Positions 24,839 through 49,773 of a stretch of DNA of 64,000 nt are shown here, piece after piece. The DNA is from a virus, in IMG/VR virus record IMGVR_UViG_3300044510_000078. One strand, written 5' to 3'. Numbering within the stretch: the first letter of the stretch is position 1; each line of letters opens with the position of its first letter. Made by a program: the position numbers and the translations under genes. The notes under the pieces were generated by a model. That model saw nothing but the letters and a program-made list of their open reading frames with translations, was not told where the DNA came from and ran no database searches.

Positions 24839-25042
24839 ATGGAAAAGAAAGTCATTCAATACATCGTCAGAGAGTCCTACGGAAACTCCCTCGAATACAT
24901 CGCCAATCCTGCTGACGCTCGCCTTGTCGAGCTGCTTACGGGCAGGAAAACCATCAACTCTGTCATCCGCGAGCTGATTCGTGACCTGAGTGGCGGACGT
25001 ATCCAGTTTGAGGAAGTCTGGTATCGGCACGCGAACAACTAA
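24839..25042 (+). CDS. Hypothetical protein (67 aa), leaderless unit
   Basis: Preceded by TTGACT and a -10-like box; ATG close behind. Confidence 0.75.
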   Translation: MEKKVIQYIVRESYGNSLEYIANPADARLVELLTGRKTINSVIRELIRDLSGGRIQFEEVWYRHANN

Positions 25043-25198
25043 GCGCGTCTAAGACCTTCTCTGGCAAGGAGATAGGTCGTCAAGGGGCGGACGCTCTAAG
25101 GCTTTAGCTTTCAAGGGTTTGGGACTTAATAAATCTCATGTTTTTTTGAAAATTGTTCTTGCATTTAGCGGAAAACCTACTACAATTTCCCCTAGAAA

Positions 25199-25396
25199 AT
25201 GAAAAACGAAATGAATCCAAATTCCAATCCTCAGTCTCCCTCAAATCCAGTCCCGGTTGTCAAGACCGATGCTAACCAGTTTTCCAGCCTGTTCGACGAC
25301 CCGAAGTTCAGGGCGTCGTATATCGTGATGGAAAAGCGTCGCGGAAGATTGCGTGTCAGGGCTTGGCAACGTCGCAATGGACACGACTGGCCGTAA
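25199..25396 (+). CDS. Hypothetical protein (65 aa)
   Basis: Own promoter (TTGCAT at 25159); stop TAA is the start of a dyad. Confidence 0.7.
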   Translation: MKNEMNPNSNPQSPSNPVPVVKTDANQFSSLFDDPKFRASYIVMEKRRGRLRVRAWQRRNGHDWP

Positions 25397-25464
25397 TCGC
25401 TTGAGTATCAAAGACTTGCGTTTGCGCCCGTCGCTTTTGTAAGTGTTTGCATATCAGGGTTTTG
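25393..25464. repeat. Paired-dyad element
   Basis: TAATCGCTTGAGTATCAAAGACTTG - 21 bp - TAAGTGTTTGCATATCAGGGTTTTG. Confidence 0.8.
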
Positions 25465-25527
25465 TAGCTTCACAAAAAATGTAAAATTTTTCTTGCTTTT
25501 TTGGGTAAATTACACAATAATTTAGCC

Positions 25528-25833
25528 ATGAAAACAAACACGACATTCAAAGAGATGAACACAAACCACTATGCCGTCGCTGACCCTGCTATGGTGGGCG
25601 CACTTGGAGCGTTGGTTGACGCTTACAATGATGAACTCAAAGCGTTGGAAGGCAGGTTTAATGCTCGCGCCAACGATATTCTTGTCAACGCCATTGTTCC
25701 GCGCAGGGAAGGAACTTGCAAGAAAGCAACCATTTTGAACGTAGCAGCAATCCACGGCGACACCGTTTTCGTGACAACCGCTGATGCCCGTGGAGTTCTT
25801 ACAGAAGCCTATATCCATGCTGGCATAGAGTAG
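25528..25833 (+). CDS. Hypothetical protein (101 aa)
   Basis: ATG at 25528 follows TTGCTT...ACAATAAT promoter. Confidence 0.75.
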   Translation: MKTNTTFKEMNTNHYAVADPAMVGALGALVDAYNDELKALEGRFNARANDILVNAIVPRREGTCKKATILNVAAIHGDTVFVTTADARGVLTEAYIHAGIE

Positions 25834-25996
25834 AGGGAAACATCAGTCTTTTACGTAACCCCCTTAATCCCGAATGGGTTACGTGGCGGCTGGGCGCTTT
25901 TATAAACGCTTCTGCATTAGGGTGTTACATATATGAAGACTTTACTTTAGAAAAAGATTTGACAATTCGCGCTTCTAGTGATAGACTTCTCCAATC

Positions 25997-26200
25997 ATGC
26001 GTTGCGAAGATTATCCTTGCTGTGGTCACGAGGACGGCGGTTGCCCGAACTCTGACGGAACCTTTAACTGCTGCACTTGCGGAGCCAAGCTCCCAATTGA
26101 TAGCACTAGCGCGATGTGCCGTCGTTGCCATCGTGAGATGGACAGGCGAGAGGACGGTTATGAGATGGGCGGCGATTATGATTACTCGATGAACTACTAA
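25997..26200 (+). CDS. Small Cys-rich protein (MRCEDYPCCGH...)
   Basis: TTGACA promoter at 25959; CxxC pairs; stop TAA begins a dyad. Confidence 0.8.
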   Translation: MRCEDYPCCGHEDGGCPNSDGTFNCCTCGAKLPIDSTSAMCRRCHREMDRREDGYEMGGDYDYSMNY

Positions 26201-26268
26201 ACCCTTCGGGAATAAGTAGTTACAGGCCCGCCCGCCGCCCTTGTAAGTCCTTGATATTCAACGTAATG
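26198..26268. repeat. Paired-dyad element
   Basis: TAAACCCTTCGGGAATAAGTAGTTA - 21 bp GC-rich - TAAGTCCTTGATATTCAACGTAATG, 16 bp before TTGCAA. Confidence 0.85.
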
Positions 26269-26320
26269 TAATTGAAGATTTTTCTTGCAATCCCTGATAA
26301 ATGTGGTAAAGTCTTAACTA

Positions 26321-26476
26321 ATGAAACTCTACACGCTCACTTTCGAGAACAATGGTCAAACCCGCAAAGAGCAAGCTGCGGCAACTTCGCTTCTTCACGC
26401 TCTTGACAGGCTTTACACTTTCAACAGAATCACTGCAACGGACAAACTTCTCGATTTTTCGATGGAAACGCTTTGA
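26321..26476 (+). CDS. Hypothetical protein (51 aa)
   Basis: Read manually: MKLYTLTFENNGQ...; own promoter. Confidence 0.7.
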   Translation: MKLYTLTFENNGQTRKEQAAATSLLHALDRLYTFNRITATDKLLDFSMETL

Positions 26477-26483
26477 CTGGTTT

Positions 26484-26557
26484 TGGCCCTTAGCTTAATT
26501 GGTTAAAGCAGCGAACTCATAATTCGCCGAGTGTCGGTTCAAATCCGACAGGGCCAA
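26484..26557 (+). tRNA. tRNA with CAT anticodon (Ile2-like)
   Basis: TGGCCCT/AGGGCCA acceptor, GCGAA-CTCATAA-TTCGC, GTCGG-TTCAAAT-CCGAC; resembles bacterial tRNA-Ile(CAU). Confidence 0.9.
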
Positions 26558-26624
26558 CCCTCTCATATTCAACAACTTACAAACGTCGCGGCCCGCACCT
26601 AAGTCTTTGATAATCAACTAAATA
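26555..26624. repeat. Paired-dyad element
   Basis: ...ATTCAACAACTTA - 20 bp - TAAGTCTTTGATAATCAACTAAATA, 17 bp before TTGAAA. Confidence 0.85.
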
Positions 26625-26675
26625 AACTTTAGTTTTTTTTCTTGAAATTTTGGACGTTTGTGGTATCTTCTATTC

Positions 26676-26813
26676 ATGGACGACAGATTCGAGCAACAGG
26701 ACAACGAGCAACCTTACGACGGCGCGGGCTTTCCCGGCTGTGGCGATGGTTCCGATGACTTCGCAGACTGCAACGCGAATGAGGCGGACGACTATCGCAA
26801 CGAAGGCGAGTAG
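26676..26813 (+). CDS. Very acidic microprotein (45 aa)
   Basis: Read manually: MDDRFEQQDNEQPYDGAGFPGCGDGSDDFADCNANEADDYRNEGE; leaderless promoter. Confidence 0.7.
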   Translation: MDDRFEQQDNEQPYDGAGFPGCGDGSDDFADCNANEADDYRNEGE

Positions 26814-26940
26814 TAGCCTCGGTTGAGGCGCATACTACCTGTAGTAGTCGGCGGGGCGGCGCTGTAAGTCTTTGATTATCAAGTAAATTGAAATGAAGAT
26901 TTTTCTTGTAAATTCCTGAAAATATGATACTCTTTTGAGT

Positions 26941-27186
26941 ATGGAAAAGACAATGACTCACGTTGAAGCCAATCAACTCGCAGAACGCGGCTTGACGGTT
27001 TCTGACAATCTTCTTTACGCAACGGCTCGCAAAGGCCCATTTACCTATGGCGTGAGCTACATCGAAGGGGCAAACCTTCCGTGGCGTTTCACAATGAAGG
27101 GGCCAAAAATTCACAACGTCAAGACTTGGGATTTTTCCCATTTCTGGAAGATTCTAAACCACATGGAAAAGTTTTACATTCTGTGA
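26941..27186 (+). CDS. Hypothetical protein (81 aa)
   Basis: TTGTAA...TGATACT promoter; ATG at 26941. Confidence 0.75.
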   Translation: MEKTMTHVEANQLAERGLTVSDNLLYATARKGPFTYGVSYIEGANLPWRFTMKGPKIHNVKTWDFSHFWKILNHMEKFYIL

Positions 27187-27341
27187 GCGCAAAAGTTATC
27201 AAAATCACCATCCTTTATGTCGTCACGTTGACGGACGGGCGCGTTATCCAATTCCAAAGCAAGGACGACGCCGAGCGATTCATCAACACTATGAAAAACA
27301 ACGTGGAAAGTTTTCATTTTAGGGCTTTCGAGTCCGTGTAA
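27183..27341 (+). CDS. Hypothetical protein (52 aa)
   Basis: GTGA start/stop overlap; stop TAA begins a dyad. Confidence 0.65.
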   Translation: MSAKVIKITILYVVTLTDGRVIQFQSKDDAERFINTMKNNVESFHFRAFESV

Positions 27342-27409
27342 GCCTTTACCGCTTAGGGACTTATAAATGCGCCCGCCGTCTCTGTAAGTGCTTGATAATC
27401 AAACAAATT
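27339..27409. repeat. Paired-dyad element
   Basis: TAAGCCTTTACCGCTTAGGGACTTA - 21 bp - TAAGTGCTTGATAATCAAACAAATT, 27 bp before TTGCTT. Confidence 0.85.
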
Positions 27410-27732: not shown

Positions 27733-27927
27733 ATGACGAAAAAACACTTCATCGCCATCGCCGCCATCATCAGTCAGACTCCAATGCCGCCGCAAACTCG
27801 CAATGAGTTGGTGGCGAAAATTTCCAAAGTCTGCAAAACCGAGAATCCGCGCTTCGACGTTGCGCGATTTACGGTCGCCTGCCTACCTACGGGGAAAAGT
27901 TTGACTTTGAGCCATAAGTGGCTCTAG
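27733..27927 (+). CDS. Hypothetical protein (64 aa, MTKKHFIAIA...NPRFDVARF..AC)
   Basis: ATG at 27733; motif pattern of small phage proteins. Confidence 0.75.
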   Translation: MTKKHFIAIAAIISQTPMPPQTRNELVAKISKVCKTENPRFDVARFTVACLPTGKSLTLSHKWL

Positions 27928-27991
27928 TCTAACGGGTTGGAAAGGGCGGGCCGCGCTCTGTATGTCCTTGATGCTGAGAGTCTTAGACAAC

Positions 27992-28318: not shown

Positions 28319-28384
28319 AATCTCATTGATATACAAAGCTTTACAAAACCCCCCACCCGCAAGTCTTTGAAAGCGAGCGACTTA
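28319..28384. repeat. Paired-dyad element
   Basis: Left dyad 16 bp from the minus-strand -35; right dyad begins with the minus-strand TAA of 28382-28576. Confidence 0.8.
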
Positions 28385-28576
28385 ACGCCACGCCAATTCG
28401 GGCATTGACTCTACGCGCACGATTGCCGAGCGTCCAACCTGCCGCTTCAGCATCTCAATCTGCACGGTGGCGAGAGATTCCGCCCGAATGACGGCGGCGT
28501 AATTCACGCCGTCTTTGGCGTAAATGACACGGCGAAGGGTAGAGTTGCGGTGACGTGGGTTGATGTGGACTTGCAT
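28382..28576 (-). CDS. Hypothetical protein (64 aa)
   Basis: TTGCCT...TGATACT promoter; leaderless ATG. Confidence 0.75.
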   Translation of the reverse strand: MQVHINPRHRNSTLRRVIYAKDGVNYAAVIRAESLATVQIEMLKRQVGRSAIVRVESMPELAWR

Positions 28577-28679
28577 GGTGTAAAAGTATCACAAGAATTC
28601 CCCAAAGGCAAGAACTTTTTGAAGTTTTTTTACAAATAAATCTTTGACTTTTCAGGACAATTGTGATAGGATTTCTCCT

Positions 28680-28850
28680 ATGCGAATCAAAATCACATAC
28701 TTAAAAACCGGCAACGAATATATTCAACAGGCCGAGGAGGTTCATTTCAACAAGGGTAGTATCGCTCTTTTTGGGGAAAAGTATGCCACTTTTTTCCGTC
28801 CGCAAGACGAAGTGAAAGTCGAAATTCTGGACGATACACGGCAGTCGTAA
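28680..28850 (+). CDS. Hypothetical protein (56 aa)
   Basis: TTGACT promoter; ATG at 28680; stop begins a dyad. Confidence 0.7.
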   Translation: MRIKITYLKTGNEYIQQAEEVHFNKGSIALFGEKYATFFRPQDEVKVEILDDTRQS

Positions 28851-28919
28851 AGCTTTCTTTCTGAAGGACTTGAGGAGTCCGCAGAGCCAGTTTGTAAATC
28901 TTTGATATTCAGGTTTTAG
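28848..28919. repeat. Paired-dyad element
   Basis: TAAAGCTTTCTTTCTGAAGGACTTG - 22 bp - TAAATCTTTGATATTCAGGTTTTAG. Confidence 0.75.
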
Positions 28920-29017
28920 CCTAATCCCATGTCACGCCCCAAAGAAGTCCCCTGAGTGGAACGAAAAGTGACTGAAATTGTTTGACTTTTATTGAGTTTT
29001 CGGCTATCATCATTTTA

Positions 29018-29224
29018 ATGAATACCTCCCTCAAATCCGCGCAATATAGACTCCGTTCGACTCTCGAAGCTAACGGAATCAAAGTCGGCACGAAGAAAGC
29101 TCAAATGGCCGAATTCTTTTTCCTTCAGGGAGCATTGGCTGCCGCTGATAAGGAGTTTCCGTCCACTTCCGCAGCAATTTGTATGCTCTCTGGTCGTTCG
29201 ATTCTGACTCTCAAAAATGAGTAA
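29018..29224 (+). CDS. Hypothetical protein (68 aa)
   Basis: TTGACT-17-TATCAT promoter; ATG at 29018. Confidence 0.75.
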   Translation: MNTSLKSAQYRLRSTLEANGIKVGTKKAQMAEFFFLQGALAAADKEFPSTSAAICMLSGRSILTLKNE

Positions 29225-29294
29225 GAGGCTGTAAATCAGATACTTACAAAGCCCGCCCCGCCGCCCCCGTAAATCCTTCTCCACCAACGAAATA
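29222..29294. repeat. Paired-dyad element
   Basis: TAAGAGGCTGTAAATCAGATACTTA - 23 bp - TAAATCCTTCTCCACCAACGAAATA, 16 bp before TTGCCA. Confidence 0.8.
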
Positions 29295-29344: not shown

Positions 29345-29977
29345 ATGATGAATCGTGCAACCGCCCTTGAAATTGTTGGCGGACTTTCCACTCCCTCAAA
29401 AATGCCGTGTCACTCTTTTTCCATTCCGGCGCGACATTGCCTTGTCGGGCAAAAGTTGCGTGATGTCGAGGGGTCAATTTGTTCCAAGTGTTACGCTTTG
29501 AAGGGGCGTTATGGATTCAAAAATGTTCAAACCGCGCTAGACCGTAGGTTTGAAAATTTGAATCACCCACTTTGGGTTACGGCAATGGCTTGGCTTTTGA
29601 ATAACGTCGAGAAAAGCGGCTTTTTCCGTTGGCACGATTCCGGCGACTTGCAAAGCGTTGAACACTTGGGGCGAATCGTTGAAGTGTGCAAACTGACTCC
29701 CGGCGTGAAGCATTGGCTTCCCACCCGTGAGTTTGGGATTGTTGGGGACTTCATCCGTGGCGGTGGTATCATTCCTGATAATCTCACAGTCCGTTTTTCC
29801 GCTTTGATGTTTGACGGTCAACCGCCCGTGACTGCGGCTCGCAATCTTGGCGTGCAAGTGTCGAGCGCAAGCAAAGAAAACTTTACTTGCCCCGCCTCAA
29901 AACAGCAAAACCAGTGCGGCGACTGTCGCGCTTGTTGGGATAAGTCGCGGTTTGACATTTCCTATAAGAAACACTAA
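29345..29977 (+). CDS. GP88-like Cys-rich protein (radical-SAM-like)
   Basis: SKMPCHSFSIPARHC...SICSKCYALKGRY, FRWHDSGD, HWLPTRE, CGDCRACW. Confidence 0.75.
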   Translation: MMNRATALEIVGGLSTPSKMPCHSFSIPARHCLVGQKLRDVEGSICSKCYALKGRYGFKNVQTALDRRFENLNHPLWVTAMAWLLNNVEKSGFFRWHDSGDLQSVEHLGRIVEVCKLTPGVKHWLPTREFGIVGDFIRGGGIIPDNLTVRFSALMFDGQPPVTAARNLGVQVSSASKENFTCPASKQQNQCGDCRACWDKSRFDISYKKH

Positions 29978-30057
29978 AAAATATGGCCATTCTAATCACG
30001 GCATTAGTTTTCGGCGTGTTTGTTTCTTTGTTTGTTGGAGCAATAGTCAATCCGCCA

Positions 30058-30129
30058 TAAGTCATTGGCTGCTAAGGACTTAGAAGGGCGGGCGGCGAAA
30101 TCCGTAACCAATTGAAATTCAATTGATTA
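30058..30129. repeat. Paired-dyad element
   Basis: TAAGTCATTGGCTGCTAAGGACTTA - 22 bp - TAACCAATTGAAATTCAATTGATTA. Confidence 0.85.
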
Positions 30130-30593
30130 CAAATTATCAGCAAGCATGGTCAACCACTCGCATCCCACCATCGTATCGCTCAGTCCGTTTGCGCGGAAGG
30201 TTCGCCCGACGCCTTAGCCTTGTCCGTTGTTGCTTGCTAAAAATGTGACGGCAGGCGGACATCGCACCCGCTTGGAGACTCGCCAACAGCTACCCTTGCT
30301 GCCGTCAGAAATTTAATGGGGCGCGTATCGCTCTCCCCCTCGCGCTAACCTTATATTGTTTGAGCGGTGGTTACAGCACCCGCTTTTGCCTCACTTTACT
30401 TGGCTCTCGGCTTCAGCTACTCGATACGAGGTCAGCTTTCGCTGGTGGTGTCGCACTTTGGGTTCTGCCACTGGCCGTTTAGTAAAGGCTCTTTGATATG
30501 TTCCGTGACTTTTGAGAGTTTAGCGTCAAACATTTTGCGAATGACGCCGCGAAGTAAGTCTCGCTCTACGTAACACACCAAAGAACCTTCAAC
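30130..30593 (-). ncRNA. Candidate large structured ncRNA (about 460 nt)
   Basis: TTGCAT-17-TATTCT promoter (30629-30601) with no nearby start codon; GC-rich, multiple inverted repeats. Confidence 0.55.
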
Positions 30594-30655
30594 TGTTAAT
30601 AGAATACCATAAAACGAAAAAAAATGCAAGCACTTTTTTGAACTTTTTTCCATTT

Positions 30656-30726
30656 TAAGCCATTGAAACTCAAGAACTTACGAGGCGAACGGGCGGCGGC
30701 GTAAATCCTTGATAGATAACAGTTTG
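30656..30726. repeat. Paired-dyad element between divergent promoters
   Basis: TAAGCCATTGAAACTCAAGAACTTA - 21 bp - TAAATCCTTGATAGATAACAGTTTG. Confidence 0.85.
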
Positions 30727-31034: not shown

Positions 31035-31050
31035 TAGTTCAGTTCTCGCG

Positions 31051-31121
31051 CAAGTCTTTGGGCAATAGGGGCTTACGCTGGGCGGGGGCGTTTTTGCAAG
31101 TCCTTGTTAGTGAATAACTTA
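31051..31121. repeat. Paired-dyad element
   Basis: CAAGTCTTTGGGCAATAGGGGCTTA - 21 bp - CAAGTCCTTGTTAGTGAATAACTTA, 7 bp before TTGACT. Confidence 0.8.
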
Positions 31122-31165: not shown

Positions 31166-31324
31166 GTGGATAAATCATTTTCAAACCTATCTCTTGACTC
31201 TGCCGCCGATGCTGTTGACATTCTCAGGGCAATGCAATCTCTTGATAATCAAGAACTTACGCAGTTTGAAACTTGGCTTGAGGCAATAATGGTTCCAACT
31301 GAGCGACCTATTTGCCACGAATAG
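31166..31324 (+). CDS. Hypothetical protein (52 aa, GTG start)
   Basis: TTGACT-17-TACAAT promoter. Confidence 0.6.
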   Translation: MDKSFSNLSLDSAADAVDILRAMQSLDNQELTQFETWLEAIMVPTERPICHE

Positions 31325-35003: not shown

Positions 35004-35083
35004 TAAACCCTTCATAATCATAGACTTACAAGGTAATAAAAAATGTATTGACTTTTTAATAGCCGTCTGATAATATATCCAAA

Positions 35084-36169: not shown

Positions 36170-36292
36170 ACTCCTATAAGTATTACAACAACAAAGCGGG
36201 TCGCGCGCTTCATAAGTGGTTGATTAATAAAGGGTTATGTTTTTTTAATTTTTGGGATTGACATTACAATAAAGTAATGGTAATCTATTCTT

Positions 36293-36410
36293 ACCTGAAA
36301 TCCTCAAGGGGTTGGAAAGAGTTGAATAAAGCATTGCCCCTAAGAAGCCTGACGGTAAATCTTTAGAGAACGTAAAACTGGGCTGAAAAACTTAATGCAA
36401 GTCAAGGGGC
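36293..36410 (+). ncRNA. Candidate small RNA
   Basis: TTGACA-17-TAATCT promoter; no ORF; AGGGG/CCCCT and AGCC/GGCT stems. Confidence 0.4.
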
Positions 36411-36454
36411 GAGGACGACTTGACATTCTTTTGAATGTGCGATAGTATAGTTTC

Positions 36455-38544: not shown

Positions 38545-38549
38545 ACTTT

Positions 38550-38966: not shown

Positions 38967-39078
38967 GCGACAAATATACCAGAAAACCCTTCAAAGTCAA
39001 CAAAAAAAATAAATTTATAATTCCTTTATAGGCAAAGACTTACGTAGCCCGGGCCGCGCTCGACGTGCTCGACGACCC

Positions 39079-39789: not shown

Positions 39790-39935
39790 CGAACGCCAGA
39801 AACATCTACATTGTCGAGGAAAGCCTCGAATTCATTTTTAGGAACTCCAAGAGCTTCGGCGAATTGCTCGACCATTTCTTCGTCTGCCGCAATAGTTTGG
39901 AGTAAATCCTCAAGAATTGTTGCGTTGTCGTTCAT
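39786..39935 (-). CDS. Acidic microprotein (49 aa)
   Basis: Read manually; ATGA overlaps with both neighbours. Confidence 0.65.
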   Translation of the reverse strand: MNDNATILEDLLQTIAADEEMVEQFAEALGVPKNEFEAFLDNVDVSGVR

Positions 39936-40672: not shown

Positions 40673-41034
40673 GGCTTTAATACTACCATAAAAACTTAAA
40701 AAGTCAACAACTTTATCTTGTTGATAGTTAAGGACTTGAAGAGGCGGGGGCCCATTTTTTATTTGCCGAGAAGTTTGGTCAGACAATTCTTGTGAAAAAC
40801 AGCCCAATTTCCACCGGGGATATTTTCTTGAACTAAAACTGAATCTTCAACTAAATTTATTAGTTCGTTACATCGCAAGCATTTACATGGAAGCATACTA
40901 GCTAATGGAACAAAATATTTAAGTTCTCTCATTTTTTACTTATGATTTTTGCCAATGAAATGCGTCGTAAAAACCGCAATGAACAATCCCGCTGTGATAA
41001 TTAAAATCCACATTAGTTTTCACAAGTAAGGAAG

Positions 41035-42673: not shown

Positions 42674-42744
42674 TATCTCCTTCACTATCAAGGACTTACG
42701 AGACGGACGGGCGCTTTTATAAATCCCTCTGGCAAAACCTATTG
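42674..42744. repeat. Paired-dyad element
   Basis: ...CTATCAAGGACTTA - 21 bp - TAAATCCCTCTGGCAAAACCTATTG. Confidence 0.8.
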
Positions 42745-42810: not shown

Positions 42811-42888
42811 TGGGGTGCTAGACGGGACTTGAACCCGTATAAACCAGACTCACAATCTGGAGCATTCGCCAATTATGCTACTAACACC
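42811..42888 (-). tRNA. tRNA-His(GTG)
   Basis: G-1:C73 eight-bp acceptor, CCAGA-TTGTGAG-TCTGG, encoded CCA. Confidence 0.93.
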
Positions 42889-42897
42889 ATTAAAAAA

Positions 42898-42973
42898 TGG
42901 CGAGCCATGCCGGAATCGAACCGAGCCTTTCTCGATAGACAGTCGAGACGATACGCCTGCTTTTCTATGGCCC
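42898..42973 (-). tRNA. tRNA-Asp(GTC), weak D-arm
   Basis: CTCGA-CTGTCTA-TCGAG, T-loop TTCGATT, G73, CCA. Confidence 0.8.
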
Positions 42974-43087
42974 AAGCGTCTTATATTACACTAGCCTTGT
43001 AAAAATGTCAATCAGATTCTCCGAAGATTGCGATTCCAAAAATGACACCAAAGAGGGCAACTACAATTAGTGCAATCATCATAAAAA

Positions 43088-43165
43088 TGGCACGAGGAGT
43101 CAGAATCGAACCGACCACACAGAGATTTGGAGTTTCCGTCGCCTATCCTTGGAACATTCCCCCGT
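43088..43165 (-). tRNA. tRNA-Trp(CCA)
   Basis: CTCCAAA loop, T-arm, CCA; acceptor has G-T pairs and possibly one extra G. Confidence 0.75.
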
Positions 43166-43169
43166 ATTT

Positions 43170-43244
43170 TGGTGCGCTCGGCAGGACTTGAACCTGCAAC
43201 TAACTGGTTAAAAGCCAGCTACTCTGCCATTGAGTTACGAACGC
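43170..43244 (-). tRNA. tRNA-Lys(TTT)
   Basis: GCTGG-CTTTTAA-CCAGT, canonical cloverleaf, CCA. Confidence 0.93.
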
Positions 43245-43290
43245 AACTACCCTTATCTTACACAAAAACCCTACGTCCGTCAAGCAGAAG

Positions 43291-43614
43291 TTAGAAAGGA
43301 ACAGATTTGTGGTAAAGCTCGTAAGCCCTCATCAAATCTTCGACAAGATACTTCGCTTCTATCAAACCAAGACCGGGGCAAATTTCCCGCGCCCGCTTGA
43401 TATAAAGAATCTTTTGAGAAGAATTGCAGCGTCCATTACGAATGTCTTTGGCGAATTGAGCAAAATGCGACGCATTGAAAGTTCCCGGCACAGGAACTTG
43501 AGACTCGGCCTTATCCAGCAGTTCCGTCAAAATAACCATTCCAAGCCCCGTCTTAGGATTTGAAAGGATTGTCGTGATAATTTGCTGGCGGCTCATGTCG
43601 AGAGTGATTTTCAT
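43291..43614 (-). CDS. Protein with ribosomal L7/L12 C-terminal-like motif
   Basis: QKILYIKRAREICPGLGLIEAKYLVE matches the KIxxIKxxRExxGLGLxEAKxLVE pattern. Confidence 0.65.
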   Translation of the reverse strand: MKITLDMSRQQIITTILSNPKTGLGMVILTELLDKAESQVPVPGTFNASHFAQFAKDIRNGRCNSSQKILYIKRAREICPGLGLIEAKYLVEDLMRAYELYHKSVPF

Positions 43615-43655
43615 TTTTTAATTATAGGACAGGTTTGACCGCAAAGCAAGTTCGA

Positions 43656-44162
43656 TTACTTGCAAACTTCAAAAACTTTACCACTTTGAATCTTATCCTT
43701 CAGGAAACACCGATAGGCGTTGCGGTCTAGGTCAATTCCAGAAATGTAATTTTCGTCTTCTTCTTTAACAGAAAGTCGTCGTAGTTTCGGAGATTCGCGC
43801 CTCGACGATAGATAAAAAAATTCAACAATACGCTCGCCCGAATCTAGGCTAGTTTGCTCGACCAAAGAAATAACGTGATTCCCGTTGTCACTGTTATCGC
43901 CGTCATTTTCGTCTGCGCCAAGATAGAGGTTAGAAAAAACCCTGTCCATTCCACTTGTCAAGTGACGAATGAAATCAACCATCACGGTTTCCGGCTCCAT
44001 CCTGTCAAGAGGATAAAAAGAATTGTTAAGCCTAGAGCTTTCTCGCAAAGCGCGAACATAATCCTTCGCTTCTGTGACTAGCCCCATTCCGCTCGAATGG
44101 GCAAAAAGAGCAACACTTTTACGTTCGCCGTTTGAGAATTGAATTGAGATTCTATCGCCCAT
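43656..44162 (-). CDS. Hypothetical phage protein (168 aa, MGDRISIQF...LFAHSSG)
   Basis: ORF with conserved-looking N-terminus. Confidence 0.75.
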   Translation of the reverse strand: MGDRISIQFSNGERKSVALFAHSSGMGLVTEAKDYVRALRESSRLNNSFYPLDRMEPETVMVDFIRHLTSGMDRVFSNLYLGADENDGDNSDNGNHVISLVEQTSLDSGERIVEFFYLSSRRESPKLRRLSVKEEDENYISGIDLDRNAYRCFLKDKIQSGKVFEVCK

Positions 44163-44195
44163 AGTTTGTTTTGTTGTGATGATACTAACAGGAAA

Positions 44196-44396
44196 TTAGT
44201 CGTTTGTCAATTTCAAAATCGCCGCAATGTCTTTTTTGTTAATGAAAGCCGGATACACAAAGCCCCTTTCCAAATTAACATAAACATCTTCAAATTTATA
44301 AGAAGATATTTCTCCAGAAGAAAGAGTATCGCCTTTGAAGTTTTTGCAGGAAACCTTAAATTCTACACCGCTTTTGAGGATAACTTTAAGAACCAT
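44196..44396 (-). CDS. Hypothetical protein (66 aa)
   Basis: Promoter-like upstream sequence; ORF track. Confidence 0.7.
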   Translation of the reverse strand: MVLKVILKSGVEFKVSCKNFKGDTLSSGEISSYKFEDVYVNLERGFVYPAFINKKDIAAILKLTND

Positions 44397-44439
44397 AGAA
44401 TTAGTCTATCACGCCTCTGTTAGAAAGTAAAGAAAATTT

Positions 44440-44514
44440 TGGCTGGCCTCAAAGGATTTGAACCTCTAATCTTGACGTTCAGAGCGTCTTATGTTGCCGT
44501 TACACCAGAGGCCA
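44440..44514 (-). tRNA. tRNA-Gln(CTG)
   Basis: TGGCCTC/GAGGCCA acceptor, GACG-CTCTGAA-CGTC, G73, CCA. Confidence 0.88.
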
Positions 44515-44518
44515 AAAT

Positions 44519-44596
44519 TGGTGCAAGCGGTGGGAGTCGAACCCACTTTCTCTCGATTATCAGTCGAGTGCTTGACCGTTAAGCTTCTCCACTGAC
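44519..44596 (-). pseudogene. Degenerate tRNA-Ile(GAT)
   Basis: D, anticodon and T arms intact; 5' acceptor strand mismatched, with about 3 extra nt. Confidence 0.7.
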
Positions 44597-44604
44597 TTAA
44601 AAAG

Positions 44605-44680
44605 TGGTAGAGCTAGGGGGAATTGAACCCGCCATCCCTGAGTTGAAAGCCCAGAGTATTAGCCATTATACGATAGCTCC
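44605..44680 (-). tRNA. tRNA-Glu(TTC)
   Basis: GGAGCTA/TAGCTCT, CTGGG-CTTTCAA-CTCAG, CCA. Confidence 0.88.
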
Positions 44681-44685
44681 ATTCT

Positions 44686-44770
44686 TGGTGGTAGCGGCAG
44701 GAATCGAACCTACTACCTATGCGGGTTAGTTGGGTTACGGCCAACCGAGCACCATTGCACGTCAAACTTT
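44686..44770 (-). pseudogene. tRNA-Tyr(GTA) lacking its 5' acceptor strand
   Basis: GTTGG-CCGTAAC-CCAAC, long variable arm, T-arm and CGCTACC-A-CCA present; no complementary GGTAGCG upstream. Confidence 0.7.
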
Positions 44771-44989
44771 GTAGCTTTTATAGTTAATTATATTTATTTG
44801 AATATATTACACCAAAACCGAACCTATATGTATTTTGTTTTACATTTAGGTTCGGAAAGCCAACTGTATGTTATGTGTTTGTTTTTTTAAAAAAAAAAAA
44901 AAAAGAAGATAAAACAGTCACAGATTTTCAATGGTTATTGTTCCTTTTCAGACCTTTTACCAAAGAAACATATATGTGCCTCTGTCATT

Positions 44990-45394
44990 TTATCTCTAAC
45001 GACACTTTTATGCCGAGTATGTAACTATCAAGCCATGCGCTACTGCCCATTTTTCCAGAGCGGCGTCCAAGCCACGCTTCGCTTCATGCAGGCGATTGCA
45101 TTAGCTCCCGGTTAAGGAGCGGGAATCTTCAAAGAACAACTAAAAATTGGGGCGGGTTTTTGTCGTTTTTCACGAAAAAGTTGACCCGCCAAAACCTCAG
45201 TGTTTCTCGTCGAACACCTAACGAATTTATCTAATTTATTACTCTAATAAAAGACGTTGACTGTCCGTTTGCCAGCCACGGCAGCTATTATTGCCCAGAC
45301 AGCTAGGGAGGAGGCTAATGCCCGATTCGAGCCGTCGCTCTTTTGAATCGTCTGCTTAGGCTTTTCTCGCAGCATCCAATTTAGCACCAACGCC
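44990..45394 (-). ncRNA. Candidate structured ncRNA / tRNA-operon leader with boxA-like site
   Basis: TTGACT-17-TATTAT promoter (45429-45401), no credible ORF, several hairpins, GTTCTTTGAA at 45137-45128. Confidence 0.5.
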
Positions 45395-45500
45395 AAAAAC
45401 ATAATACATCCATTCTACTAGAAAGTCAACAAAAAGTTACGCCTATAATAGCTTGATAATCAAAGACTTGCGACGCGGGCCGACCGAATTTTAAAAATAA

Positions 45501-45605
45501 AGTGCGCGGCAGGATTTGAACCTGCAATAAATAGTCAGACTTAACCCATGCAGGAGATACCTGCCGCTGGGAGTCTCTAGCGTCTTTACATTCCGCCACG
45601 CGCAC
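45501..45605 (-). tRNA. Leu-type tRNA-like gene with a 27-nt hairpin insert in the anticodon loop
   Basis: GTGCGCG/CGCGCAC acceptor, GCG..CGC D-stem, GCAGG-TTCAAAT-CCTGC; insert CCCAGCGGCAGGTATCTCCTGCATGGG (45571-45545). Confidence 0.75.
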
Positions 45606-45738
45606 TCAAACGAAAAACTTTTCAAAACTTCTCGACGGCTTTTATCAGTTTGTGATTAGTTGGCGTTCCAAGCGAGCTTTCGCTCTTTAGTTGTTTGGAC
45701 TCTCTTATGGCTTATTCAGCCACTCGGAACAAATAAAA

Positions 45739-46623
45739 TTAGTTATTCGCCAAAACCACGGCTTTTGCAGGTTGAACAATGACGGGCTTCAAAAGGGCGT
45801 CCATCACATTCTGCGAACGCGCAGCGCGATTCAACTCAAACAAGACACGGCCATTCGTGCGTTGAGCGTATTCAAATCGCTCGCTCTCAACTTGGTGAGT
45901 GAGATAATCAGTCGCCGCATTGTAAAGATTAAACAAGTTTCGAGCCTTGTCCTCGTCGCGCTTAGGAGCAAGCCAAAGACCCTCAACGCCTTCGCGCACA
46001 GAGTCAGAAAGAATGTCCTTCTCCGTCAAATTGCGAAGAACAGTCTTACCCTGCTCGTCGCTCAAAGACTTCTCCGCTAAGAGAGAGAAAATCTCGGCTG
46101 ACTTCTCGAAACCATTAACTGCACGGTCAAGAGCGTCGCCAATGAAGTCGAGAGACATCTTAGTAGAGTGCTTCTTTGTCAAAGAAAACTCCTTTTCCAT
46201 TGTCACCATACCGTTAGAGCAAACAAGACGCAGAAAACCCAACGCCCACGACGCTCGCAATGAACGGTCAAAGGAATTTTGGAGAGTCAGACGGAAACCA
46301 AGTTCGTCGCCGACCTTCGGAACAGGAATGGTCTTGTCCTTGAAGTCAAATGTCGCATAGAATCGCTCGCCGTTACCAGCGACAACCAACTTCTGCGAGG
46401 ACGGAGTGAGGCCGCGAGAAGTCATTGCTTCATTAGCCTTGTCCATCAAATCCTTATTCTGAATCAGACCGTAGTATTCGGTGCAAACACCAAGAGGCGC
46501 ATCAACACCTTCGCGGAAGTTACCAAACCAGCCAGTTGTGCGACCGTCCTTAGTAAAGAGAGGTTGCGTAGAGACGTTGTAATCCCAATTTGCGTTAACG
46601 GATTGAAGTGTGGGGCGAGCCAT
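45739..46623 (-). CDS. DUF932-like protein
   Basis: LGVCTEYYGLIQN, GNGERFYA, LQNSFDRS, LRLVCSNGM, NLFNLYNAATDY. Confidence 0.8.
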   Translation of the reverse strand: MARPTLQSVNANWDYNVSTQPLFTKDGRTTGWFGNFREGVDAPLGVCTEYYGLIQNKDLMDKANEAMTSRGLTPSSQKLVVAGNGERFYATFDFKDKTIPVPKVGDELGFRLTLQNSFDRSLRASWALGFLRLVCSNGMVTMEKEFSLTKKHSTKMSLDFIGDALDRAVNGFEKSAEIFSLLAEKSLSDEQGKTVLRNLTEKDILSDSVREGVEGLWLAPKRDEDKARNLFNLYNAATDYLTHQVESERFEYAQRTNGRVLFELNRAARSQNVMDALLKPVIVQPAKAVVLANN

Positions 46624-46693
46624 AGTTTGTTTGAGTTTGGGTTGTTTTTGTTACTGTGAAAAGTATAGCAAAGACTTGGTTACTTGTCAAGCC

Positions 46694-46936
46694 TTACTTA
46701 ATACGCGACTTCAATTCCGCCTTAATCGCACGAGCGACATCGCCGCGCCAGCTTGACGCATTGCAAAGAAAGTAACTTACGATTGAGCGTCCATCGTCAA
46801 GTCCGTAGTTGTCATCCACGGAATTCAGACAGTGCATCGCCAAAAGGTAGGGCTTCGCTCCAAAATACACATTGCGCCAGTCACGCGAAATGAGGGCTGC
46901 GATTGACGCGAGGTTCATGCTTTTAATGTCGGGCAT
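46694..46936 (-). CDS. Conserved phage protein (80 aa; DWRNVYFGAKPYL.AM...YFL.NA..WRG)
   Basis: TTGACA promoter; recognisable small phage protein pattern. Confidence 0.85.
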   Translation of the reverse strand: MPDIKSMNLASIAALISRDWRNVYFGAKPYLLAMHCLNSVDDNYGLDDGRSIVSYFLCNASSWRGDVARAIKAELKSRIK

Positions 46937-46978
46937 GATTTAATTCTAGCACGTTTTTCTAAGATGTCAAGCTCTTCG

Positions 46979-47048
46979 TAAGTGCTTAATCATCAAACTC
47001 TTGCGTGGCGTGCCATCGGAATTATAAATCCTTAAAAATCAACAACTT
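46979..47048. repeat. Paired-dyad element
   Basis: TAAGTGCTTAATCATCAAACTCTTG - 20 bp - TAAATCCTTAAAAATCAACAACTTA. Confidence 0.85.
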
Positions 47049-47123
47049 AAAAAACATTTTAATTACTTGAATTGATTATTTGGAAGCTTATTTGATAGGT
47101 ATAGATTCTGAGGGGATTATTTG

Positions 47124-47199
47124 TGGCCGGTCAAGTCCGAATCGAACGGACACCCTCGCTTCTTCAGAGCGTTGTGCAGACCACCTACACCATTGACCG
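47124..47199 (-). tRNA. tRNA-Phe(GAA)
   Basis: CGGTCAA/TTGACCG, CGCT-CTGAAGA-AGCG, CCA. Confidence 0.88.
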
Positions 47200-47205
47200 T
47201 TTATT

Positions 47206-47287
47206 TGGCGCACCGAGAAGGAGTCGAACCTTCATGTAATTCCAATTAGCCTTTCTATCGGTTCGTAGCCGAAGGGCATACCGGCGC
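47206..47287 (-). tRNA. Atypical tRNA-Arg(ACG)-like RNA without a normally placed D-arm
   Basis: Acceptor, TCGG-CTACGAA-CCGA and T-arm present; TAATTGGAATTA hairpin lies 3' of the anticodon arm. Confidence 0.6.
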
Positions 47288-47294
47288 ATATTTC

Positions 47295-47370
47295 TGGTCG
47301 CAACGGCAAGAATCGAACTTGCGGAAGCTTCCTTATGAGAGAAACCTGAGTAACCAACGCTCTCGCTGCG
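47295..47370 (-). tRNA. tRNA-Met(CAT)
   Basis: CGCAGCG/CGTTGCG, CTCATAA loop, GCAAG-TTCGATT-CTTGC, CCA. Confidence 0.8.
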
Positions 47371-47418
47371 CTCTTAGTCGTATTACACTACAAAACATTA
47401 TAGCAGAAAAATAAACAA

Positions 47419-48327
47419 ATGTCAACAAATTATCCATATCGAACCTTAATGCGCGTATTGTCTATTATGAACAGAAAACATTCATTAGAAACCCGTCAAA
47501 AAATTCGTATCGCTAGAAAAGCCTACCTTGCCGGGACAACAAAAAGGTCATGGCAAGTTAAACAAGCTGGCAAATCTATCCCTTGCGAAAAATTTAAAGA
47601 AATCTTAAATAAAAACAAAATTAATTACATTCCAGAATTCGAGCCCCTTCGTGAAATGGGTAGATATTATTCGATTGACGTGTCATTTCCAGACAAGAAA
47701 ATAGGAATAGAAATAAATGGAAGACAACACTACGACTCTTATGGAAACCTCGCTCCTTATTATCAACTCAGACACGACCTAATTGAAGCCTTTGGTTGGA
47801 AACTATACGAAATCCCATATCACATGGCCTTCGACGAAGAAAAAATGATGAATCTTGTATTATTAATCCTTAATTCAGAAAATAAAATTGAATTTAATTA
47901 TAAATGCTACTCTCCACCCAAAAAGAAAACCTACATTGCAAAACGCCCAAATAACATTAAATATAATTACCCACCTTACGAACAGCTTAAAGAAATGGCA
48001 GAGTCTATGTTTTTAAAAGAATTAGTCGTTAAACTAAACATTCCACAAAAGGCTCTGTGGTTGCATTTAGCAAAACGAGGAATAAAAACAAAAAAATACA
48101 CAAAGCCTATCAAATTCAAAAATCCAAACAAAAACAGGCCATCACAAAGAAAAGTCCCAAGACCTTCCCCAGAGGAACTCCAAGAGCTAATAAAAAAACA
48201 TCCAATGACTGTTCTCGGGAGAAAATTCGGAATATCTGACAATGCAATCAGAAAATGGTGTAGGTCTTACAACATAGACCTACGCAAGAAAAAATTGGTA
48301 GTTCCGACGGGACTCGAACCCGTATAA
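47419..48327 (+). CDS. Free-standing homing-type endonuclease (NUMOD3-like + DUF559/Vsr-like + HTH)
   Basis: RKHSLETRQKI, YSIDVSFPDKKIGIEINGRQHY, GWKLYEIPY, C-terminal LGRKFGISDNAIRKWC. Antisense within the tRNA array; true start may be 47467. Confidence 0.75.
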   Translation: MSTNYPYRTLMRVLSIMNRKHSLETRQKIRIARKAYLAGTTKRSWQVKQAGKSIPCEKFKEILNKNKINYIPEFEPLREMGRYYSIDVSFPDKKIGIEINGRQHYDSYGNLAPYYQLRHDLIEAFGWKLYEIPYHMAFDEEKMMNLVLLILNSENKIEFNYKCYSPPKKKTYIAKRPNNIKYNYPPYEQLKEMAESMFLKELVVKLNIPQKALWLHLAKRGIKTKKYTKPIKFKNPNKNRPSQRKVPRPSPEELQELIKKHPMTVLGRKFGISDNAIRKWCRSYNIDLRKKKLVVPTGLEPV

Positions 48328-48398
48328 TTCCCACATCTAGGGAGAGCTTTCGCTTGCTGATTATAAGTCAGCTATGTTACCAATTACATCACGGAACT
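48296..48398 (-). tRNA. tRNA-Ile(TAT) with about 31-nt expanded variable region
   Basis: AGTTCCG/CGGAACT, GCTGA-CTTATAA-TCAGC, then AAGCGAAAGCTCTCCCTAGATGTGGGAATT before the T-arm. Confidence 0.8.
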
Positions 48399-48406
48399 AA
48401 TAAACT

Positions 48407-48480
48407 TGGTAGCGGATTCTGGACTCGAACCAGCCCTTGAGCTTATGAAACTCAAATGCAACCTCTTACACCTTTCCGCA
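48407..48480 (-). tRNA. tRNA-Met(CAT), 1:72 mismatch
   Basis: TGAGT-TTCATAA-GCTCA, T-arm, CCA. Confidence 0.8.
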
Positions 48481-48487
48481 AATCATT

Positions 48488-48561
48488 TGGAGCAGTATGC
48501 CGGAATCGAACCGGCACATAAACTATGGCAAAGTTTCAGGCTTCCACTACATCAATACTGC
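48488..48561 (-). tRNA. tRNA-Gly(GCC)
   Basis: GCAGTAT/ATACTGC, AAACT-TTGCCAT-AGTTT, U73. Confidence 0.88.
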
Positions 48562-48567
48562 ATTATT

Positions 48568-48643
48568 TGGTGGAGCCGTGGAGAGTTGAACTCCAAACCT
48601 TCTCGGTGCAAACGAGACGCTCTGCCAGTTGAGCTACGGCCCC
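48568..48643 (-). tRNA. tRNA-Ala(TGC)
   Basis: G3:U70, TCTCG-TTTGCAC-CGAGA, CCA. Confidence 0.95.
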
Positions 48644-48654
48644 AAAAAAGAACA

Positions 48655-48730
48655 TGGCTGCTAGAGCAGGAGTCGAACCCGCACCGTTTCCGTTAACAGC
48701 GGAAAGGACTACCAATTATCCCACCTAGCA
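48655..48730 (-). tRNA. tRNA-Asn(GTT)
   Basis: TTCCG-CTGTTAA-CGGAA, G73, CCA. Confidence 0.92.
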
Positions 48731-48735
48731 ATCTT

Positions 48736-48810
48736 TGGAGCCAAATGGAGGAATCGAACCCCCGTTTCAAAGATACAAACCTCGCGTAATAGCCACTATA
48801 CGAATTTGGC
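48736..48810 (-). tRNA. tRNA-Thr(TGT)
   Basis: GCCAAAT/ATTTGGC, TTTGTAT loop, CCA. Confidence 0.85.
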
Positions 48811-48889
48811 GTCTGTGAATATACTACACTACCCCTAAACAAAAATCAAGAAAAAACAATCTAATCTCTTTCTTATCTATTCCTTTTCC

Positions 48890-49327
48890 CTATTCACAGA
48901 AGTCAATAATCACAGGTTTTCCATCGTGGAAACGGACATTGGAGCGGCGAATGTCGTCAATCAAATTGTATCCATTTTCTTCGCAAAAAAACTCAATTTC
49001 TTTCAAGGCTTTTGCGCTTGAACCACCGATTCCATTGGCTTTTATTTGAACGAAGAAAAACTTCCGTTCGTAAATTGGCCACAAAAAATACTTTTGAAAT
49101 TTTGGAGATATACTGGCGCGAGCCGTTTTGAAACAGTCAACGTCACGGTCGTTTTCATCCTTCCAAACCTTAAAAACATATTCAGGAAAATCTAGATGAT
49201 AATACACCCACTTGAATGCACCAGAAAACAAAAACTTAAATCCTAATTTTTTACACTGTTGTCTTACCTTAATTGGCGAATCCAAACAAGGAAGACTCAA
49301 CAGAGCAATGGCGGATTTGAATTTCAT
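48890..49327 (-). CDS. Small protein-kinase-like (APH/RIO-type) protein
   Basis: SGAFKWVY, YVFKV, DDIRRSNV...PVIIDF catalytic-loop and DFG-like motifs. Confidence 0.6.
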   Translation of the reverse strand: MKFKSAIALLSLPCLDSPIKVRQQCKKLGFKFLFSGAFKWVYYHLDFPEYVFKVWKDENDRDVDCFKTARASISPKFQKYFLWPIYERKFFFVQIKANGIGGSSAKALKEIEFFCEENGYNLIDDIRRSNVRFHDGKPVIIDFCE

Positions 49328-49404
49328 CTATTTAATAGTATCTTGATTTTTCGGGAAAAGCAAGCTCCAACACTTTAAGCAAAACCGCTGATATTCAAGG
49401 ACTT

Positions 49405-49773
49405 CTACTTCAAAACACAGGAGACACCATTTCTTATGATAGATGGGTTTTTGGGTGTCGTATTTAGATTTATGAAACATACGGTAATATGCAACGGCCA
49501 AAAAGGATTAGAAGAAAGGCCCAATTCGCGTCGTATTTCGGCGACTTCTGGACACTCTATCACAATCCAAAAATACCCGTCGTCATCACACCGTATTACA
49601 CCGTCATAAAAGAATGAGAGTTTTTGTCCCTCAAATTTTCCCCAAGAGGGATGGGAAGAAACATTGTCGTATTTGCCCGCTATTAAGGTAGCGTGTGAAC
49701 CGTGAAGGGGTAGCGTAGCTTTCTTCCAAAGAAATTTCTCCACCCACCATTTATAATACTCGCTTTTTGCCAA
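49405..49773 (-). CDS. 2H phosphoesterase-like protein (N-terminus uncertain)
   Basis: Two HxT motifs (GSHATL, PLHITV), YYKWW, IRRELGL; may be joined to 49683-49964 through a frameshift. Confidence 0.65.
   Translation of the reverse strand: MAKSEYYKWWVEKFLWKKATLPLHGSHATLIAGKYDNVSSHPSWGKFEGQKLSFFYDGVIRCDDDGYFWIVIECPEVAEIRRELGLSSNPFWPLHITVCFINLNTTPKNPSIIRNGVSCVLK

Follow-up and report, generated by a model that had tools for sequence, protein, structure and literature searches.

Paired palindromes resembling a mirrored IHF site at early promoters and gene-cassette junctions of an uncultured phage

What is the palindrome that recurs between the small genes of the virus record IMGVR_UViG_3300044510_000078 (IMG/VR), and what would bind it? 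The window, the whole 64,000-nucleotide stretch analyzed here, is phage DNA, with a large terminase (TerL) gene at 14553-16454 (-), tail fibre genes and PhoH. Structural genes occupy bases 1-24,000 at 32-40% GC; from ∼24,700 on, GC is higher, at 42-47%, and an array of small genes follows, equipped with promoters of their own. An initial annotation, made from the sequence alone, described at least 20 intergenic copies of a 25-bp imperfect palindrome (hereafter the dyad) in this array. The present analysis suggests that each dyad is a putative target of a dimeric DNABII (IHF/HU) protein that bends DNA and most likely comes from the host; judged on sequence evidence, this assignment has about an even chance of being right.

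An iterated symmetric 31-column matrix, used at a threshold of at least 15 bits, detected 39 dyads in 25,000-49,450 (first to last, 25,047-49,408), where 100 block shuffles predict 0.09, and four at the same threshold in the other 39.5 kb of the window. The matrix was trained on these dyads and the contrast is partly circular, yet it is very large. At least 26 of the 39 fall outside open reading frames (ORFs), though a greedy ORF model covers 78% of the region. The palindromes of the initial annotation are thus confirmed. The literal consensus, allowed up to three mismatches, recovers only six sites (0.01 expected); it is too strict because the element is degenerate, with matrix information concentrated in TAA, (C)TTG, CAA(G) and TTA.

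Twelve pairs are present, with start-to-start spacings of 46 (six), 47 (three), 41, 45 and 48 bp (one each). Their spacers measure 16, 20, 21, 22 or 23 bp, mostly 21, and are 58-86% GC, which reproduces the earlier description of GC-rich spacers of 20-23 bp in eleven pairs and 16 bp in one. Structurally, the better-conserved halves face the spacer: TTGAnnnTCAAgGACTTAC is followed by a GC-rich box and then by GTAAGTCyTTGAnnnTCAA, and conservation drops in the outer halves. The GGGCGG-like GC box can point either way, whatever the direction of the genes. At 39018, 40714, 42674 and 45446, on the minus-strand side, the distal dyad has decayed while the GC box and the proximal dyad remain, which suggests that the core module consists of GC box, dyad, A/T-rich stretch and promoter. 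In seven units the TAA of the distal dyad is itself the stop codon of the upstream gene (25394, 26198, 27339, 28384 on the minus strand, 28848, 29222 and 30058, the last for a 25-codon ORF). Two units (27915-27985 and 30058-30129) lie between convergent genes and have no promoter.

Sequence comparison connects the dyad with the sites of integration host factor. The sequence of each half, YAA-N4-TTGATW, is the IHF consensus WATCAANNNNTTR in reverse complement, and the full symmetric form, YAA-N4-TTGAT-W-ATCAA-N4-TTR, places WATCAA-N4-TTR on both strands around one central base. The window has 24 exact matches to the 13-mer WATCAANNNNTTR, whereas 6.9 ± 2.7 would be expected, and dyads account for 16 of them. 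In characterized IHF sites, WATCAA begins close to the middle of the site and TTR follows after 4 bp, and a pair of AA steps, 9 bp apart, receives the intercalating prolines (PMC1874591; bioRxiv 10.1101/382655). The dyads share this geometry: TTR stands 4 bp beyond WATCAA, and TTGATWATCAA has its TT and AA steps 9 bp apart, placed symmetrically about a W that belongs to both strands. The motif, which the initial annotation could not match to any named system, is therefore a mirrored IHF consensus. A homodimeric DNABII protein would be expected to prefer such a symmetric version of the site. The initial annotation had proposed a dedicated dimeric regulator or a recombinase; the IHF match points instead to a general host architectural protein.

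The 142 ORFs of 70-260 aa between 19 and 64 kb yielded no match to a DNABII, helix-turn-helix (HTH) or recombinase family, in keeping with the initial annotation, which saw no obvious cognate protein, and PF00216 (DNABII) had no match in three dyad-bearing phage records that are 77-88% complete. These absences favour a host factor. The host is probably a member of the Planctomycetota or another bacterium of the Planctomycetes-Verrucomicrobia-Chlamydiae (PVC) group, since the structural module carries, at 1501-5641 (-), a gene pair typical of planctomycetes and of candidate auxiliary function, which encodes a PSCyt1/PSCyt2(DUF1549)/PSD1(DUF1553) protein of 916 aa and a DUF1501 protein of 471 aa. 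DNABII homologues are encoded in all 41 sampled Planctomycetota genomes, one to ten in each, so that a host DNABII paralogue is a plausible binder.

The dyads are coupled to promoters. About 20 promoters linked to a dyad share the form TTGACx, 16-17 bp, TGnTAnnnT, that is, a sigma70-type promoter with an extended -10. Their start codons follow 6-12 nt past the -10 and lack a Shine-Dalgarno sequence (from 25199 on, e.g. 26321, 26650, 26935 and 29345), and the early mRNAs appear to be leaderless or nearly so. Promoter-like sites number 50, against 27 in shuffles, and a dyad is present at only ∼20 of the ∼35 promoter-like sites in the region. This departs from the control of dozens of early genes that was first proposed. 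Promoter control cannot be the sole role of the units, because some of them sit between convergent genes without a promoter.

Program-scored gaps between the end of the 25-mer and the -35 are 6, 7, 8, 16 (six cases), 17 (three), 19, 20, 26, 27, 31, 31 and 37 bp, and a gap of 28 bp at 25464/25493 was read by eye. The gaps of the initial annotation are reproduced, as is its coupling of dyads to promoters at preferred distances. The classes 6-8 and 16-17 recur in a 118-kb relative (G006) and in many independent IMG/VR contigs, and a gap of 16 is also found in a second, close relative (G414). Pooling the window, G006 and 48 IMG/VR loci gives 28 cases at 6-8 bp, 14 at 16-17, three at 26-27 and three at 37-38. 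The robust result is the existence of two dominant positions one helical turn apart, common to unrelated contigs and to G414 (gap 16). The phasing first proposed holds up in part, as the evidence falls short of a full series of 6 + 10.5n: a scan over periods favours 10.6 bp for the window (p = 0.02 with the maximization taken into account), but the modal 16-17 class supplies most of this signal, p becoming 0.09 on its removal, and phasing beyond the two dominant positions is weak. The two dyads of a pair are not two turns apart, as had been stated, and their mutual helical phase is not conserved, because the centre-to-centre distance is ∼46 bp here and 42-50 bp in other phages.

The placement of the units, directly after the stop codon of one gene and ahead of the next promoter, is also what would be expected if the dyads acted at the RNA level, folding into hairpins for termination or processing of the upstream transcript. 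This would make the unit a terminator-plus-promoter cassette like the promoter early stem-loops (PeSLs) of T4-type phages, which are built likewise, and Bacteroidota chromosomes do use one dyad arm as the 5' arm of a tRNA terminator hairpin. The sequences of the units make this very improbable. Arms within a dyad pair at 6.62 of 12 positions, no better than arms taken from different dyads (6.75 of 12), so that there is no covariation and the palindromy derives from a shared consensus, as for the site of a symmetric protein. Four pairing schemes in 12 related contigs gave no test of 48 that passes multiple-test correction (lowest p = 0.047). Folded as RNA, 13 whole units have z-scores from -2.2 to +0.6 (mean ∼-0.4), and 11 of them are indistinguishable from shuffles. 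Terminator-like sites are not in excess (23 vs 25 in shuffles), there is no U-tract after a GC-rich stem, as an intrinsic terminator would have, and the promoter-side halves are the most degenerate. The dyads thus behave as protein-binding DNA sites rather than RNA hairpins, in accordance with the initial annotation. A separate, perfect 8-bp hairpin at 25852-25886 (CGTAACCC ... GGGTTACG), after ORF 25501-25833 and ahead of a dyad with its GC box, could, in contrast to the dyads, be a true terminator.

Beyond the window, 48 IMG/VR stretches and at least 120 bacterial contigs contain the 19-mer GTAAGTCYTTGATWATCAA; roughly 17 or more would arise by chance. The arrangement of dyad, GC-rich spacer and dyad is likewise found in many phage contigs; across 30 contigs the pair spacing is near-invariant within a contig and varies between contigs (42, 45-47, 48, 49 or 50 bp), and the spacers average 72% GC, have a contig-specific sequence and occur in both orientations within one contig. 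G006 has 15 of its 16 dyads within its final 8 kb, a stretch of 39% GC, the rest of G006 being at 26-33%. A literature search returned no published description of the element, and a search with the motif string gave chance matches only.

In bacteria, the dyad is placed in settings that parallel those of IHF in E. coli, which include the RIB class of bacterial interspersed mosaic elements (BIMEs), transposon ends and att sites. A Bernardetiaceae metagenome-assembled genome (MAG; G005, L169-L178) contains more than 100 copies, at the centre of GTAG-headed doublets of repetitive extragenic palindromes (REPs) and in a miniature inverted-repeat transposable element (MITE), many of them at contig ends. 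Boccard and Prentki, cited in PMC4550694, reportedly described IHF-binding RIB elements in 1993, a parallel to dyads within REP doublets. In genomes of Bacteroidota and other bacteria, a dyad copy stands directly beside tRNA genes, and a Dysgonomonas copy lies 750 bp from an integrase gene. These settings count in favour of the IHF-type reading. The motif TAANNNNTTGATWATCAA exceeds its reversed control by 23:3 in ∼100 Planctomycetota, ∼82:10 in Bacteroidota, 18:4 in Pseudomonadota and 19:9 in Bacillota, a suggestive enrichment, though one drawn from small counts. The perfect 25-bp symmetric pattern had no match in five bacterial genomes.

Two further observations concern the bacterial copies. 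The Bernardetiaceae MITE is ∼190 bp long, with the terminal inverted repeat CAGCAATTCCCACTTTGA and three dyad copies in subterminal positions. In WOR-3 MAGs (L053, L095, L098, L105, L116 and others), a conserved repeat of ∼150 bp holds the exact 19-mer, with at least seven copies in one genome.

The dyads thus resemble the IHF sites of E. coli and its phages (the lambda H' site, the IHF-assisted early promoters of Mu and lambda) in several respects: WATCAA-N4-TTR with AA/TT kink steps 9 bp apart, helically related positions upstream of sigma70-type promoters, and further occurrences at transposon-like ends, beside tRNA and integrase loci and inside REP doublets. They differ in being palindromic, with both halves matching the consensus, whereas a classical site combines the consensus with an A-tract; in occurring as pairs around a conserved GC-rich spacer, with at least a dozen repeats in each genome; and in their likely host phylum, which has no IhfA equivalog among the 41 genomes, binding to the dyads being a prediction.

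Several of these points weigh against an IHF-type site. No protein in any of the 41 Planctomycetota genomes scores above the IhfA equivalog cut-off; the binder would consequently be another DNABII paralogue, with a putative specificity for the dyad, and the classical IHF heterodimer is not a plausible candidate. The identification itself depends on a consensus that was defined for E. coli IHF, a heterodimer. Classical sites carry an A-tract opposite the consensus half, an asymmetry that the palindromic dyads lack; only the promoter-proximal ones have a decayed, A/T-rich half on the promoter side. The N4 positions (GTCC/GGAC) and flanking G/C are mildly conserved, and IHF requires neither. The conserved GC-rich box has no counterpart in IHF biology, the 42-50 bp spacing between phages means that no fixed two-bend geometry is conserved, and the pooled loci include out-of-phase gaps of 19-21 bp (four cases) and 31-32 bp (eight). 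The counts in Pseudomonadota (18:4) and Bacillota (19:9) are too few for the motif to be linked with phyla that possess IHF. Nor does the DNABII reading account for the GC-rich box, the part played by the distal dyad or the out-of-phase gaps.

Alternatively, the dyads could be operators for a dedicated dimeric regulator, either encoded by the phage elsewhere in its >170-kb genome or an unrelated host transcription factor, through which the whole set of early promoters is switched jointly on or off; in that case, the resemblance to the IHF consensus is accidental. The strongest columns of the palindrome are 9-10 bp apart, which also suits an HTH dimer, positions near -54 and -64 resemble class I activator sites, and the mild N4 conservation together with phage-specific GC boxes and spacings could reflect a phage-specific partner. 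The search for a regulator gene covered only 64 kb of the genome; in that part, neither HTH nor any other DNA-binding family was found among the 142 ORFs, and the three dyad-bearing phage records contain no DNABII gene. The same 19-mer is present in phages with terminases of as little as 40-55% identity and in bacterial repeats of several phyla, a distribution hard to reconcile with a private regulator, and units also stand at convergent gene ends without a promoter. We consider this alternative rather unlikely. Among named sites, the Fur box, FNR/CRP, Fis, hix/gix, dif and loxP-type sites were considered and set aside, as their spacing or flanks do not fit.

If a DNABII-type protein does act here, a phage parallel is TF1 of Bacillus phage SPO1, a phage-encoded DNABII protein that prefers hydroxymethyluracil DNA and has preferred sites in early promoter regions. 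Both cases would place a DNABII-type bender on a cluster of single-gene early transcription units. TF1 is encoded by its phage, whereas neither the window nor the three related phage records contain a DNABII gene.

Cassette content differs between relatives at the units. G414, with a TerL 86% identical, is colinear with the window at ∼74% identity up to ∼24,735, the point at which the dyad region begins, and carries different cassettes beyond. The window cassette 26863-27283 is present in G414 as three tandem copies, each after a dyad pair (spacing 48-49) and each with the same stop-codon fusion and a gap of 16. In this one relative, the differences would fit exchange and duplication through the repeated units, as with PeSLs. 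In T4-type phages, recombination between PeSL copies shuffles gene modules (Arbiol et al. 2010, PMC2839356), and the initial annotation's comparison with PeSL cassettes is apt for this putative role, as cassette content in G414 changes at the units. Both systems consist of short repeated regulatory cassettes amid small non-essential genes, and the units would, like PeSLs, provide seams for modular shuffling. A PeSL cassette also has a strong sigma70-like early promoter, as do the cassettes behind the ∼20 dyad-linked promoters. PeSLs differ in having a true terminating stem-loop, whereas the dyads have no pairing selection, U-tract or excess folding; in this phage, the repeated part is a pair of protein sites upstream of the promoter.

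Cassette turnover and tandem triplication at the units, inverted arms around an asymmetric spacer that occurs in both orientations within one contig, stop codons fused to the dyad, and the >100 Bernardetiaceae copies within a MITE and REP doublets could all be read as signs of mobility. On this view, the unit would serve recombination or mobility first and foremost, as the site of a recombinase or transposase or as a self-spreading repeat of the BIME or REPIN type, and its link to promoters would be secondary. We regard this as improbable. The window has no integrase, transposase or RAYT-like (REP-associated tyrosine transposase) family; spacers of 16-23 bp are too long for the cores of tyrosine or serine recombinases; and neither the GTTRRRY core of integron attC sites nor the hairpin covariation that single-strand recombination needs is present. 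Mobility leaves unexplained the preferred dyad-promoter distances common to several phages, and homologous recombination between 70-bp repeats suffices for shuffling, as with PeSLs.

The dyads do share with REP, BIME and REPIN sequences and with attC sites the form of extragenic imperfect palindromes, placed as inverted pairs around a short linker at gene 3' ends, where they delimit cassettes. The window dyads lack the hairpin covariation, GTAG head and RAYT gene of the former and the GTTRRRY core, pairing selection and integrase family of the latter, and the cassettes they bound carry their own promoters. True GTAG-headed REPs do occur in the Bernardetiaceae MAG, with the dyad as the linker that joins them.

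Table 1. Dyads and dyad pairs of the window with their spacers, adjoining genes and linked promoters (gap, distance in bp from dyad end to -35)
Position	Type	Dyads	Spacer or GC-rich box	Adjoining feature	Promoter
25050..25121	paired unit	25050-25074, 25097-25121	22-bp G-rich spacer		+, starts 25159 (gap 37)
25394..25464	paired unit	25394-25418, 25440-25464	21-bp C-rich spacer	distal TAA stops ORF 25199-25396	-35 TTGCTT at 25493 (gap 28, by eye)
25903..25927	single dyad	25903-25927	behind GC-rich box		+, starts 25959 (gap 31)
26198..26268	paired unit	26198-26222, 26244-26268	21-bp C-rich spacer	dyad TAA stops ORF 25997-26200	+, 26285 (gap 16)
26555..26624	paired unit	26555-26579, 26600-26624	20-bp spacer	distal dyad abuts 3' end of tRNA-Met (26483-26560)	+, 26642 (gap 17)
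26848..26889	single dyad with box	26865-26889	G-rich box	cassette 26863-27283, triplicated in G414	+, 26906 (gap 16)
27339..27409	paired unit	27339-27363, 27385-27409	21-bp C-rich spacer	dyad TAA stops ORF 27081-27341	+, 27437 (gap 27)
27915..27985	unit	27915-27939 (weak), 27961-27985	G-rich spacer	between convergent genes	none
28319..28384	paired unit	28319-28343, 28360-28384	16-bp spacer	dyad TAA stops ORF 28382-28576(-)	-, -35 at 28302 (gap 16)
28848..28919	paired unit	28848-28872, 28895-28919	22-bp spacer	dyad TAA stops ORF 28644-28850	next +, 28982 (gap 62, outside classes)
29222..29294	paired unit	29222-29246, 29270-29294	23-bp C-rich spacer	dyad TAA stops ORF 28982-29224	+, 29311 (gap 16), to GP88 gene
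30058..30129	paired unit	30058-30082, 30105-30129	22-bp G-rich spacer	convergent junction; dyad TAA ends 25-codon ORF 29984-30061	none
30656..30726	paired unit	30656-30680, 30702-30726	21-bp G-rich spacer	between divergent promoters	-, 30629 (gap 26); +, 30758 (gap 31)
31051..31121	paired unit	31051-31075, 31097-31121	21-bp G-rich spacer		+, 31129 (gap 7)
31235..31259	single dyad, 25.3 bits, no pair	31235-31259		probably inside small gene	none
31928, 32299, 33061, 37137	further weak single dyads
35004..35028	single dyad	35004-35028			+, 35048 (gap 19), to RNA ligase gene
36213..36237	single dyad	36213-36237			+, 36258 (gap 20), to ORF-poor transcript
39018..39042	single dyad	39018-39042	GC-rich box on high-coordinate side		-, -35 at 39000 (gap 17)
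40714..40738	single dyad	40714-40738	GC-rich box		-, -35 at 40707 (gap 6)
42674..42698	single dyad with decayed second dyad	42674-42698	GC-rich box	adjoins tRNA array	-, -35 at 42657 (gap 16)
45446..45470	single dyad	45446-45470	GC-rich box		-, -35 at 45429 (gap 16)
46979..47049	paired unit	46979-47003, 47025-47049	21-bp spacer		-, -35 at 46970 (gap 8)
49381..49405	last dyad of region	49381-49405			-, -35 at 49363 (gap 17)

The phage itself is distant from cultured ones. Its TerL is at most 27% identical to that of any cultured phage, and megablast of 20 kb against cultured phages gave no match. A unique 40-mer likewise had no match in IMG/VR or among the metagenome contigs. The GC content steps up by ∼10 points at the onset of the dyad and cassette region, from 32% to 42-47% in the window and, at ∼110,000, from 28% to 39% in G006, and G414 (L206) behaves likewise. 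The few GC-rich spacers are too little to explain this step, which indicates that the cassette genes themselves are GC-richer than the remaining phage. A 226-aa protein at 18433-19113 (-) has a weak match to Sigma70 region 2 (E = 1.3e-5) and may be a phage sigma factor for later genes.

In addition to ∼20 tRNA genes, the window encodes two RNA ligases, a metallophosphatase and three GP88 paralogues. The GP88 (PF17338) genes lie at 29345-29977 (+), 41339-41968 (-) and 60180-60920 (-), the first two forming an inverted duplication with ∼75% DNA identity; a homologue in G006, 56-60% identical, adjoins that phage's own dyads. The RNA ligases, which belong to two different families, and the metallophosphatase (35084-36169 (+), 37528-38586 (-) and 39932-40807 (-)) adjoin the tRNA array at 42811-52293, and together these look like a tRNA repair module. 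Relatives of the first RNA ligase are found in unrelated phage contigs that have neither dyads nor shared synteny and are unusable for junction mapping. At gathering thresholds, Rfam returned tRNAs only. Among its matches, 48299-48398 (-) is a 100-nt tRNA match of 61.5 bits with no ARAGORN call, perhaps a tRNA with an insertion, and 44529-44587 (-) is a partial one covering model positions 7-64. Two stretches behind dyad-linked promoters, 30130-30629 (-) and 36290-36540 (+), have no convincing ORF and are candidate non-coding RNAs; neither has an Rfam match at those thresholds.

Taken at face value, the DNABII assignment would lead to the following arrangement. Each module runs from GC-rich box through dyad and A/T-rich stretch to a sigma70-type promoter with an extended -10 and a small, leaderless or near-leaderless gene. 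The promoter-proximal dyad is centred near -54 or -64, less often -75 or -85, and a sharp bend there would fold upstream DNA onto RNA polymerase along one helix face. The distal dyad would close the upstream cassette, often by supplying its TAA stop, and together with the stiff GC-rich spacer it would bend the DNA a second time, so that a compact nucleoprotein boundary would separate the transcription units. The unit of ∼70 bp, present in about a dozen copies, would offer homologous recombination a foothold, so that cassettes could be duplicated, lost or replaced at the units. The identity of the binder, the bending, the effect on transcription and the boundary role are all deduced from sequence and position. 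On this basis we propose, tentatively and at a good deal less than an even chance, that a large group of uncultured phages from bacteria of the PVC and Fibrobacteres-Chlorobi-Bacteroidetes (FCB) groups share a dedicated cassette-boundary module, in which a symmetric site for a homodimeric, IHF-like protein of a non-proteobacterial host is combined with a GC-rich clamp, and which sets early-promoter strength by helical register, insulates single-gene units and drives cassette exchange.

If this proposal is true, there would be a sequence-specific DNABII protein that has yet to be characterised, phage early regions would follow a general architectural rule, and sequence-specific bending of the IHF type would extend beyond Proteobacteria. 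The early regions of many uncultured phages would be assembled from one standard part, composed of bend site, GC clamp, promoter and leaderless gene, and the same part would act as the seam of cassette exchange, a counterpart of the PeSL with a protein site in place of the stem-loop. The element would provide a practical marker for early promoters and cassette boundaries in metagenomic phage contigs, and it would suggest a concrete protein family, DNABII, to look for in hosts that are hard to study.

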